A DNA stretch of 64,000 nt from Escherichia coli (GCF_003334765.1 NZ_QOWT01000004.1), one strand, 5' to 3'; counted from the first letter of the stretch, positions 40,913 through 43,438 are shown. Made by a program: numbers and translations. Notes: generated by a model from the sequence alone, not told the origin.

Positions 40913-41710
40913 ATGTTTTTAGTCGACTCACACTGCCATCTCGATGGTCTGGATTATGAATCTTTGCATAAGGACGTGGATGACGTTCTGGCGAAAGCCG
41001 CCGCACGCGATGTGAAATTTTGTCTGGCAGTCGCCACAACATTACCGGGTTATTTACATATGCGGGATCTGGTAGGCGAACGTGACAACGTCGTATTTTC
41101 TTGTGGCGTGCATCCACTCAACCAGAATGATCCCTACGATGTAGAAGATTTACGCCGTCTGGCGGCAGAAGAGGGTGTTGTAGCGCTGGGTGAAACCGGG
41201 CTGGATTATTATTACACGCCGGAAACTAAAGTACGTCAGCAAGAGTCCTTCATCCATCATATCCAGATTGGTCGTGAACTGAACAAGCCGGTTATCGTCC
41301 ATACCCGTGACGCCCGTGCCGATACGCTGGCAATTCTGCGCGAAGAAAAAGTGACGGATTGCGGTGGCGTACTACACTGTTTTACAGAGGACAGAGAAAC
41401 GGCGGGTAAATTACTGGATCTCGGATTTTACATCTCCTTTTCCGGCATTGTGACCTTCCGTAATGCGGAGCAACTGCGCGATGCTGCGCGTTATGTCCCC
41501 CTGGATCGGTTACTGGTGGAAACTGACTCACCTTACCTTGCGCCGGTACCGCATCGAGGAAAAGAGAATCAACCTGCGATGGTTCGTGACGTTGCAGAAT
41601 ACATGGCTGTGTTGAAAGGTGTTGCCGTTGAAGAACTGGCGCAGGTAACCACCGATAACTTCGCCCGTCTGTTTCACATCGACGCTTCCCGCCTTCAATC
41701 CATCCGTTGA
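40913..41710 (+). CDS. ycfH: TatD-family metal-dependent DNase YcfH, 265 aa
   Basis: ORF 40853-41710; recognised start at internal Met [36 protein letters not shown]... Confidence 0.9.
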
Positions 41711-41859
41711 ATGAGTTTTTTTAAAGCTCGTAATTAATGGCTAAAACGAGTAAAGTTCACCGCCGAAAATTGGGCGGTGAATAACCACGTTTGAAATATT
41801 GTGACATATGTTTTGTCAAAATGTGCAACTTCTCCAATGATCTGAAGTTGAAACGTGAT

Positions 41860-42004
41860 AGCCGTCAAACAAATTGGCACTGAATTATTTTACTCTGTGT
41901 AATAAATAAAGGGCGCTTAGATGCCCTGTACACGGCGAGGCTCTCCCCCCTTGCCACGCGTGAGAACGTAAAAAAAGCACCCATACTCAGGAGCACTCTC
42001 AATT
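41860..42004 (+). promoter_or_regulatory. ptsG promoter and 5' leader region (known targets of Mlc, CRP and the sRNA SgrS)
   Basis: Non-coding region immediately upstream of ptsG; the leader GCACCCAUACUCAGGAGCACUCUCAAUU-AUG contains the RBS segment known to pair with SgrS; individual operator sites not resolved by eye. Confidence 0.5.
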
Positions 42005-43438
42005 ATGTTTAAGAATGCATTTGCTAACCTGCAAAAGGTCGGTAAATCGCTGATGCTGCCGGTATCCGTACTGCCTATCGCAGGTATTCTGCTGGGCGTC
42101 GGTTCCGCGAATTTCAGCTGGCTGCCCGCCGTTGTATCGCATGTTATGGCAGAAGCAGGCGGTTCCGTCTTTGCAAACATGCCACTGATTTTTGCGATCG
42201 GTGTCGCCCTCGGCTTTACCAATAACGATGGCGTATCCGCGCTGGCCGCAGTTGTTGCCTATGGCATCATGGTTAAAACCATGGCCGTGGTTGCGCCACT
42301 GGTACTGCATTTACCTGCTGAAGAAATCGCCTCTAAACACCTGGCGGATACTGGCGTACTCGGAGGGATTATCTCCGGTGCGATCGCAGCGTACATGTTT
42401 AACCGTTTCTACCGTATTAAGCTGCCTGAGTATCTTGGCTTCTTTGCCGGTAAACGCTTTGTGCCGATCATTTCTGGCCTGGCTGCCATCTTTACTGGCG
42501 TTGTGCTGTCCTTCATTTGGCCGCCGATTGGTTCTGCAATCCAGACCTTCTCTCAGTGGGCTGCTTACCAGAACCCGGTAGTTGCGTTTGGCATTTACGG
42601 TTTCATCGAACGTTGCCTGGTACCGTTTGGTCTGCACCACATCTGGAACGTACCTTTCCAGATGCAGATTGGTGAATACACCAACGCAGCAGGTCAGGTT
42701 TTCCACGGCGACATTCCGCGTTATATGGCGGGTGACCCGACTGCGGGTAAACTGTCTGGTGGCTTCCTGTTCAAAATGTACGGTCTGCCAGCTGCCGCAA
42801 TTGCTATCTGGCACTCTGCTAAACCAGAAAACCGCGCGAAAGTGGGCGGTATTATGATCTCCGCGGCGCTGACCTCGTTCCTGACCGGTATCACCGAGCC
42901 GATCGAGTTCTCCTTCATGTTCGTTGCGCCGATCCTGTACATCATCCACGCGATTCTGGCAGGCCTGGCATTCCCAATCTGTATTCTTCTGGGGATGCGT
43001 GACGGTACGTCGTTCTCGCACGGTCTGATCGACTTCATCGTTCTGTCTGGTAACAGCAGCAAACTGTGGCTGTTCCCGATCGTCGGTATCGGTTATGCGA
43101 TTGTTTACTACACCATCTTCCGCGTGCTGATTAAAGCACTGGATCTGAAAACGCCGGGTCGTGAAGACGCGACTGAAGATGCAAAAGCGACAGGTACCAG
43201 CGAAATGGCACCGGCTCTGGTTGCTGCATTTGGTGGTAAAGAAAACATTACTAACCTCGACGCATGTATTACCCGTCTGCGCGTCAGCGTTGCTGATGTG
43301 TCTAAAGTGGATCAGGCCGGCCTGAAGAAACTGGGCGCAGCGGGCGTAGTGGTTGCTGGTTCTGGTGTTCAGGCGATTTTCGGTACTAAATCCGATAACC
43401 TGAAAACCGAGATGGATGAGTACATCCGTAACCACTAA
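42005..43438 (+). CDS. ptsG: PTS glucose-specific EIICB component PtsG, 477 aa
   Basis: ORF-track protein [53 protein letters not shown]... Confidence 0.97.

Follow-up and report, generated by a model that had tools for sequence, protein, structure and literature searches.

The SgrS pairing site of the ptsG leader and its conserved surroundings in Escherichia coli

The ptsG locus and its promoter DNA

The DNA analysed here is a 64-kb stretch from E. coli (the window), in which the surroundings of the ptsG leader read ...AAAAAAAGCACCCATACTCAGGAGCACTCTCAATT ATG TTT AAG.... Positions 41500-42300 match E. coli K-12 MG1655 (NC_000913.3) exactly, window x being genome x - 1,115,864. The MG1655 neighbours of ptsG (b1101) are ycfH upstream and fhuE downstream, and the ORF at 42005-43438 carries the ptsG annotation in MG1655 as well as in 5425 of 5426 complete E. 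coli genomes. A 401 nt intergenic query was likewise found, at a coverage of at least 80%, in 5425/5426 complete genomes, with at least 99% identity in 5416 of those. The first-pass annotation had spoken of a region of about 290 bp upstream of ptsG, and 294 bp separate the ycfH stop (41710) from the ATG of ptsG. It had also placed SgrS outside the window, and the Rfam scan of all 64 kb agrees: gathering-level matches are the rne 5′ UTR element (rne5) at 28528-28864 (minus strand), the sRNA SraB at 30725-30893 (plus strand) and the PyrC leader at 6744-6793 (minus strand), and SgrS is absent. Among complete E. coli assemblies, five ptsG-leader and three sgrS matches are on records that carry a plasmid label; mislabelling of chromosomal replicons, or large integrations, would probably explain them.

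The gene and the elements in front of it are the following:

41716 to 41738, unstranded: putative distal Mlc-type box TTTTTTTAAAGCTCGTAATTAAT, centred on 41727, -175 from the presumed P1 start, with TT at -6,-5, AA at +5,+6 and T/T at +/-11
41854 to 41869, unstranded: putative CRP-type site CGTGATAGCCGTCAAA (CGTGA-N6-TCAAA), centred on 41861.5, -40.5 from the presumed start, class II geometry
41885 to 41907, unstranded: putative proximal Mlc-type operator TTATTTTACTCTGTGTAATAAAT, centred on 41896, overlapping the -10 region and the start, with TT/AA at +/-5,6 and T/T at +/-11
41902 to 42004, plus strand: ptsG 5′ untranslated leader from P1, 103 nt, with a presumed 5′ end
42005 to 43438, plus strand: ptsG coding sequence (EIICB-Glc, 477 aa), from the ORF and the RefSeq annotation of the identical MG1655 sequence

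We infer that transcription from P1 starts at 41902. This start puts the CRP-type site at -40.5, the distal Mlc-type box at -175 and the key cytosines at C85 and C87; we take the cytosine numbering to be that of Kawamoto 2006 and the positions -40.5 and -175 to be those of Plumbridge 1998 and Kimata 1997. An untranslated region of about 103-105 nt puts +1 near 41900-41902, and a '105 nt 5′-UTR' of ptsG is used in PMC7870926. With such a start, 41860-41901 would be promoter DNA, comprising the 3′ half of the CRP-type site, the Mlc-type operator and the -10 region. The span 41860-42004 had been annotated as leader throughout, a description that can be kept for 41902-42004, given the presumed start, and not for 41860-41901.

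Sequence conservation adds to this picture. Two near-invariant blocks, GAAACGTGATAGCCGTCAAACAAA (41850-41873) and (A/T)TTATTTTACTCTGTGTAATAAATAAAGGG (41884-41913), stand out from the variable DNA between them in an intergenic alignment of 27 Enterobacteriaceae species, and both can also be made out in Yersinia, Serratia, Pantoea, Erwinia and others. The CRP-type element GAAACGTGA-N6-TCAAACA is near-invariant in the 27 aligned Enterobacteriaceae and recognisable across the order, and the TTATTTTACTCTGTGTAATAAAT block is almost invariant in the Enterobacteriaceae alignment. The match of the CRP-type site to TGTGA-N6-TCACA (8/10) is by itself not above chance, as the window holds 21 such matches where 27.5 are expected. 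Mlc operators have as their only fixed features TT at -6,-5, AA at +5,+6 and A or T at +/-11 (PMC4288165). Both Mlc-type boxes agree with this rule, which discriminates weakly in AT-rich DNA, and it is their invariance across genera that supports them as putative operators. The region had been introduced as a hub for Mlc and CRP; its Mlc part fits the published rule and the conservation, and its CRP part draws on near-invariance in relatives, the consensus match alone not being above chance.

It is probable, on these data, that most of the span first reported serves control at the level of DNA (41860-41901, with the CRP half-site, the Mlc operator and the -10) and is not RNA leader, a reading that complements the assignment of an SgrS site further downstream. 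The near-invariance across genera of the boxes at 41854-41869 and 41885-41907, the agreement with the published Mlc operator rules and the length of the untranslated region all point this way, whereas the start is an inferred one, the consensus matches are individually weak, and an upstream promoter P2 of ptsG would presumably transcribe 41860-41901 as well. The PTS promoters controlled by Mlc and CRP (ptsG P1, ptsHI P0 and manX) share a CRP site near -40.5 and an Mlc operator over the start, with TT/AA at +/-5,6 and A/T at +/-11; only the 5′ 42 nt of 41860-42004 would belong to this layer, in which the sites described here are putative.

Further elements lie upstream. A sigma-70-like match at 41813-41841 sits in a poorly conserved stretch and was for that reason set aside as a candidate for P2. 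The distal Mlc-type box (TT-N9-AA) is 169 bp upstream of the proximal one, in a block, GCTCGTAATTAAT, that is conserved across Enterobacteriaceae and begins immediately downstream of the ycfH stop codon. Between ycfH and ptsG, at 41757-41781, there is also a conserved GC hairpin, TTCACCGCC-N7-GGCGGTGAA, followed by no T-run on either strand; Enterobacteriaceae retain it, with an altered stem in Cedecea and Shimwellia, and it could be a 3′ structure of ycfH or part of an upstream ptsG transcript.

Pairing of SgrS with the ptsG leader

The sequence of sgrS (227 nt) was taken from MG1655 77,367-77,593, and SgrS nt 165-190 were used for duplex prediction against the ptsG leader. The pairing region and the elements that adjoin or overlap it are:

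41970 to 41976, plus strand: A-tract AAAAAAA, a candidate (ARN)n Hfq distal-face site, predicted unpaired (P = 0.88), directly 5′ of the pairing site
41977 to 41996, plus strand: SgrS pairing region, consisting of GCACC (5 bp), a C mismatch, AUACUCAG (8 bp), a GA internal loop and GCAC (4 bp), at -28 to -9 from the ATG; duplex with MG1655 SgrS nt 168-187, in agreement with PMC2760817, PMC7870926 and PMC2760806
41983 to 41990, plus strand: core 8-bp block pairing with SgrS C174-U181, including C41988:G176 and C41986:G178; 41984-41990 are 96-100% conserved
41989 to 41993, plus strand: Shine-Dalgarno sequence AGGAG, 11 nt before the ATG, 100% conserved in Enterobacterales and Vibrionaceae leaders

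The duplex is built of three blocks, in which ptsG GCACC (41977-41981) pairs with SgrS GGUGU, ptsG AUACUCAG (41983-41990) pairs, after a C/U mismatch, with SgrS CUGAGUAU (nt 174-181), and ptsG GCAC (41993-41996) pairs, after a 2x2 internal loop, with SgrS GUGU. It overlaps the Shine-Dalgarno sequence AGGAG and lies well within the region needed by the 30S subunit. The segment expected to pair with SgrS had been given as the 28-mer GCACCCATACTCAGGAGCACTCTCAATT (41977-42004), immediately 5′ of the ATG at 42005. Pairing around the ribosome-binding site is borne out, as SgrS nt 168-187 lie on 41977-41996 and cover the Shine-Dalgarno sequence; the first 20 nt of the 28-mer take part, and 41997-42004 (TCTCAATT) fall outside the canonical duplex. 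The two G:C pairs found to be essential by published mutation fall on C41988 (SgrS G176) and C41986 (SgrS G178). The same 5-8-4 pattern was described by Horler and Vanderpool (PMC2760817) and also in PMC7870926, where SgrS nt 168-187 are complementary to ptsG, nt 168-181 are sufficient and G176/G178 are critical. With the SgrS mutant G176C,G178C, repression of ptsG'-'lacZ is lost and the mRNA is not fully destabilised (PMC2760806).

The first-pass annotation had left the complementarity itself to be checked. The SgrS-ptsG duplex has an energy of -27.8 kcal/mol (z = -6.1), which is beyond chance: 2000 dinucleotide-preserving shuffles of the target had a mean of -12.4 and an sd of 2.5 kcal/mol, and none of them (0/2000) reached -27.8. 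When the two strands of the 64 kb are scanned in 12,792 windows of 46 nt, the ptsG site ranks first, and the next unrelated site has -25.9 kcal/mol. So narrow a margin is common when targets are predicted from energy alone, and raw duplex energy is a weak discriminator.

The conserved sequence before the ATG might have been shaped by the needs of ribosome binding alone, its complementarity to SgrS being incidental. That other sites in the window form duplexes down to -25.9 kcal/mol would be in keeping with such an origin, whereas the first rank of the ptsG site and the failure of every shuffle to reach its energy are not. Published work already refutes it with compensatory and mutant data, in that mutants lose regulation and SgrS blocks the ptsG toeprint; further evidence on both sides comes from conservation and is given below.

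In the predicted fold of the leader, 41983-41989 are mostly single-stranded, with P(unpaired) of 0.69-0.96, and G41990 is mostly paired, with P(unpaired) of 0.09. The core as a whole is predicted unpaired at 0.70 in E. coli, and at more than 50% in 60 of 66 Enterobacterales leaders. The adjacent A-tract, which yields three ARN triplets with the GC that follows, may be a distal-face site for Hfq; across the 73 Enterobacterales leaders, 41973-41976 are 85-90% conserved and 41970-41972 are 56-67% conserved.

A GGA within the Shine-Dalgarno sequence and an A-tract adjoining the site could also be taken to mean that the segment has another main ligand, be it CsrA at the GGA, Hfq alone or another small RNA. 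Precedent exists, since manX is repressed by Hfq alone (PMC5861419), and effects of CsrA on SgrS-ptsG have been examined (PMC10729762). We regard this as very unlikely. The ptsG toeprint is inhibited by SgrS on its own, which can also repress ptsG'-'lacZ when Hfq is absent (PMC5861419); this analysis identified no other partner, and the pattern of pairing matches the pattern of conservation.

Conservation and regulation of the SgrS site

Leaders were collected by a pattern scan of species-representative genomes with the back-translated PtsG N-terminus (M-F-K-N-x-F-x-x-L-Q-K-V-G-K). The scan gave 120 loci, comprising 73 from Enterobacterales, 28 from Vibrionaceae, 4 from Aeromonadaceae and relatives, 14 from Bacillaceae and 2 from Betaproteobacteria. 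Anchored on the Shine-Dalgarno sequence, TACTCAGGAG is present in 70/73 Enterobacterales ptsG leaders versus 0/27 from Vibrionaceae. Within Enterobacterales, conservation per position is 96-100% at 41984-41993, 82-95% at 41973-41980 (AAAAGCAC) and 42-70% at 41981-41983; it peaks at GCAC and TACTCAGGAG and drops at the internal mismatch. The poorly conserved 41981-41983 correspond to the internal mismatch and the bases next to it, so that conservation along the site follows the pattern of pairing. For duplexes formed with E. coli SgrS, the mean energy is -25.1 kcal/mol in Enterobacterales, -16.7 in Vibrionaceae, -14.4 in the Aeromonas group and -8.9 in Bacillaceae.

SgrS is distributed over Enterobacteriaceae in the broad sense, with divergent copies in Aeromonas, and a conserved ptsG 5′ UTR sequence has been reported only where SgrS occurs (PMC2760817); the conservation of the site fits this distribution. 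The SD-proximal ACTCAGGAGCAC recurs in 7/27 Vibrionaceae leaders, all of them from Photobacterium, whose genomes are not known to carry SgrS, so that part of the conserved block is constrained by the ribosome-binding context too. As an account of the whole block, though, ribosome binding alone is barely credible: conservation 5′ of the Shine-Dalgarno sequence (GCAC, the A-tract and UAC) is confined to Enterobacterales, and in SgrS the seed is an invariant island between diverged flanks.

That island is seen within E. coli. The sgrS gene is present in 5400/5426 complete genomes and falls, relative to K-12, into two allele classes, with 3230 genomes at 99% identity or more and 2158 at 80-90%. 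In an alignment of three sequences (K-12 and two of the divergent class), SgrS nt 162-186, CAUCAUGUGUGACUGAGUAUUGGUG, are invariant and the flanks (about nt 126-161 and 187-213) have strongly diverged. The only change at nt 187 is U to C in HS-02, which turns the G-U pair with G41977 into G-C. A 13-nt SgrS seed is described as conserved in PMC2760817. Between the aligned alleles there are strong differences in the 3′ part of sgrT and in the terminator region, and sgrT is frameshifted in HS-02.

The Rfam SgrS model picks up only the E. coli copy. Beyond E. coli, a Klebsiella-like sgrS has the same seed as E. coli, and the sgrS of a Pantoea sp. MAG has the seed CUGAGUAGGGUGC, which forms 7 + 6 pairs around a one-base bulge with Pantoea-type leaders (GCACUCAUACUCAG). 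Lineage-matched SgrS/ptsG pairs (Pantoea vs Enterobacteriaceae) gain on average about 3-4 kcal/mol in stability over mismatched ones, and these energies offer modest support for co-evolution of SgrS and ptsG. Two further loci are of a different kind. An AT-rich assembly keeps an sgrR fragment and an SgrT ORF, with no CUGAGUA-type pairing seed seen downstream of sgrT, and a locus of Photorhabdus-like synteny has a short SgrS-like RNA without sgrT; together they suggest independent loss of one or other SgrS function.

Position 41983, opposite SgrS U181, is the sole variable base of the 8-bp core. It is A in Enterobacteriaceae (Escherichia, Citrobacter, Enterobacter, Kosakonia, Cedecea), Pantoea and others, and T in Yersinia, Serratia, Pectobacterium, Dickeya, Rahnella, Rouxiella, Brenneria and Edwardsiella. 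The SgrS seed consensus is CUGAGUAuUGGUG, in which the lower-case u (U181) marks the only variable position, and 15-21 contiguous SgrS-ptsG pairs are reported for Yersinia, Serratia and Erwinia carotovora (PMC2760817). Taken with the published variability of U181, the variation at 41983 suggests a candidate compensatory change from A:U to U:A. Searches for sgrS in the T group covered several routes. SgrR homologues led only to Enterobacteriaceae of at least 79% identity, and 50%-identity representatives led to Photorhabdus-like, Aeromonas-like or non-syntenic loci, with no sgrS of Yersinia, Serratia or Pectobacterium among them. Searching with fragments and an SgrT profile led to Klebsiella-like loci, a single Pantoea MAG and one seedless AT-rich locus, and a metagenome pattern scan for the variant seed with the conserved terminator stem gave one chance match on an archaeal-looking contig.

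Five leaders, two from Citrobacter and three from Enterobacter sp. and Pseudocitrobacter, carry an insertion of 75-125 nt between hairpin 3 (described below) and the A-rich stretch with the SgrS site, which is intact in them. The insertion in the Citrobacter youngae leader presumably resembles an ERIC/IRU repeat.

Overall, we put at about 0.96 the probability that 41902-42004 is the 5′ untranslated leader of ptsG, that 41977-41996 is its SgrS site and that 41860-41901 is promoter and operator DNA of P1; no evidence examined here speaks against it. The observation that this leader is an SgrS target is confirmed; it was already known in detail, this being the reference SgrS target site, and its confirmation here brings no new biology, though it does show that the first-pass annotation picked out a genuine regulatory hub. 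The interaction has reportedly been studied by Vanderpool & Gottesman 2004, Kawamoto 2006 and Maki 2010, and a link between efficient silencing of ptsG and membrane-coupled translation is attributed to Kawamoto 2005. As a founding model, the SgrS-ptsG pair illustrates how sRNAs silence mRNAs in bacteria and how sugar-phosphate toxicity is avoided.

Our data are consistent with the established mechanism, in which glucose-phosphate stress would lead SgrR to induce SgrS, whose nt 168-187 would anneal to -28 to -9 of the ptsG leader and cover the Shine-Dalgarno sequence. Its occlusion would block 30S binding and translation initiation, and the untranslated ptsG mRNA would enter decay through the RNase E degradosome. 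At P1 (41860-41901), the class II-type CRP site and the Mlc-type operator would regulate ptsG at the level of transcription. For repression, RNase E decay, the part played by Hfq and the binding of CRP and Mlc, we rely on the literature. Hfq normally assists the repression of ptsG, which is coupled to decay that depends on RNase E (PMC4021124), and ptsG is the highest-priority SgrS target, with a KD of ~0.11 uM (bioRxiv 10.1101/221978).

The closest known system is the SgrS-ptsG pair of E. coli K-12 itself (PMC2760817, PMC7870926), which has the same locus and nucleotides in the 5-8-4 arrangement with nt 168-187; there is no difference, and it is the reference case. Other SgrS targets (manX, asd, purR and yigL) share with ptsG the sRNA and the stress response. 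However, manX is contacted inside its coding region with Hfq as the direct repressor (PMC5861419), whereas ptsG is silenced by direct occlusion of the ribosome-binding site; asd has two SgrS sites and yigL is activated, being protected from RNase E, both unlike ptsG. Canonical Hfq-dependent pairs that repress at the ribosome-binding site, such as RyhB-sodB and MicA-ompA, resemble SgrS-ptsG in their short imperfect pairing at the Shine-Dalgarno sequence or start, in the adjacent A-rich stretch and in the coupled RNase E decay, but differ in the partner RNA and the physiological signal; SgrS is, in addition, the mRNA for SgrT.

Hairpins of the ptsG leader

Upstream of the A-tract, the leader is predicted to fold into three hairpins:

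41910 to 41927, plus strand: hairpin 1, stem 41910-41915 / 41922-41927, loop CUUAGA, from MFE and centroid folds
41934 to 41955, plus strand: hairpin 2, stem 41934-41940 / 41949-41955, with the C-rich apical loop CUCUCCCC (41941-41948), from covariation
41958 to 41969, plus strand: hairpin 3, GCGU-GAGA-ACGU, from the MFE fold and the sequences of relatives

Fifty-four distinct Enterobacterales leaders were aligned over their first 72 nt and folded with RNAalifold. The consensus consists of two hairpins, with compensatory double changes in 11/11 pairs. Its cells are paired in 89.6% of cases versus 68.8% in shuffles (0/500 as high), double-sided changes number 140 versus 50 expected in shuffles, and the covariation score is 0.635 versus at most 0.175 when partners are slid by 1-3 columns. 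Numerous G-U pairs favour an RNA on the plus strand. Hairpin 1 has double-sided changes in 5/5 consensus pairs and 92.7% of cells paired across the 54 leaders. For hairpin 2, all six consensus pairs (6/6) show compensatory changes, one of them occurring as AU in 21, CG in 15, GC in 4 and UA in 2, and the eight-base loop is conserved while the stem varies freely. Hairpin 3, just 5′ of the A-tract, has a GAGA/GAAA-type (GNRA-type) loop in many relatives and longer GC stems in Pantoea and Serratia.

The tetramer CUCC is found in the hairpin 2 loop region of 59/67 leaders, where 0.31 is expected from shuffles, and is missing from Rahnella, Rouxiella, Edwardsiella, Hafnia and two outliers. CUCC is the anti-Shine-Dalgarno tetramer, and the isolated duplex of loop and Shine-Dalgarno sequence has an energy of -7.5 kcal/mol. 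In the nested fold, this pairing has a summed probability of 0.05, which is uninformative, the contact being a pseudoknot that the model cannot represent. As loop and Shine-Dalgarno sequence are both invariant, covariation cannot test the contact either. A second SgrS contact at the C-rich loop was also considered, through the 5′ GGGGG run of K-12 or GGGGAG of Klebsiella, and was rejected, those SgrS segments being unconserved (PMC2760806) and within the sgrT coding sequence.

The ptsG leader has no Rfam match at gathering thresholds, and a permissive scan of 41650-42100 gave only chance-level hits (E = 0.58 and 2.2). A search of full-text literature returned no description of the leader hairpins, which may already be known from probing work in subscription-only sources beyond its scope. 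We tentatively raise the possibility, which we hold to be the less probable outcome, that the hairpins, and especially the loop of hairpin 2, are an undescribed cis-regulatory RNA element, acting either as a Shine-Dalgarno pseudoknot that tunes basal translation and SgrS sensitivity or as a loading site for a protein or Rho. The conserved three-hairpin leader with its C-rich loop is the only potentially useful by-product of this analysis; if functional, it would be an extra layer in a heavily used sRNA-target reporter, including the 105-nt UTR.

In the corresponding position, the ptsG leaders of Vibrionaceae have a different element, for which there is no Rfam match. It is a two-tier stem-loop with an invariant G-rich apical CUACGGGGGU, found about 60-100 nt upstream of the ATG at 26 loci; its outer stem covaries, and the composition of its loop is opposite to that of the C-rich loop of Enterobacterales.
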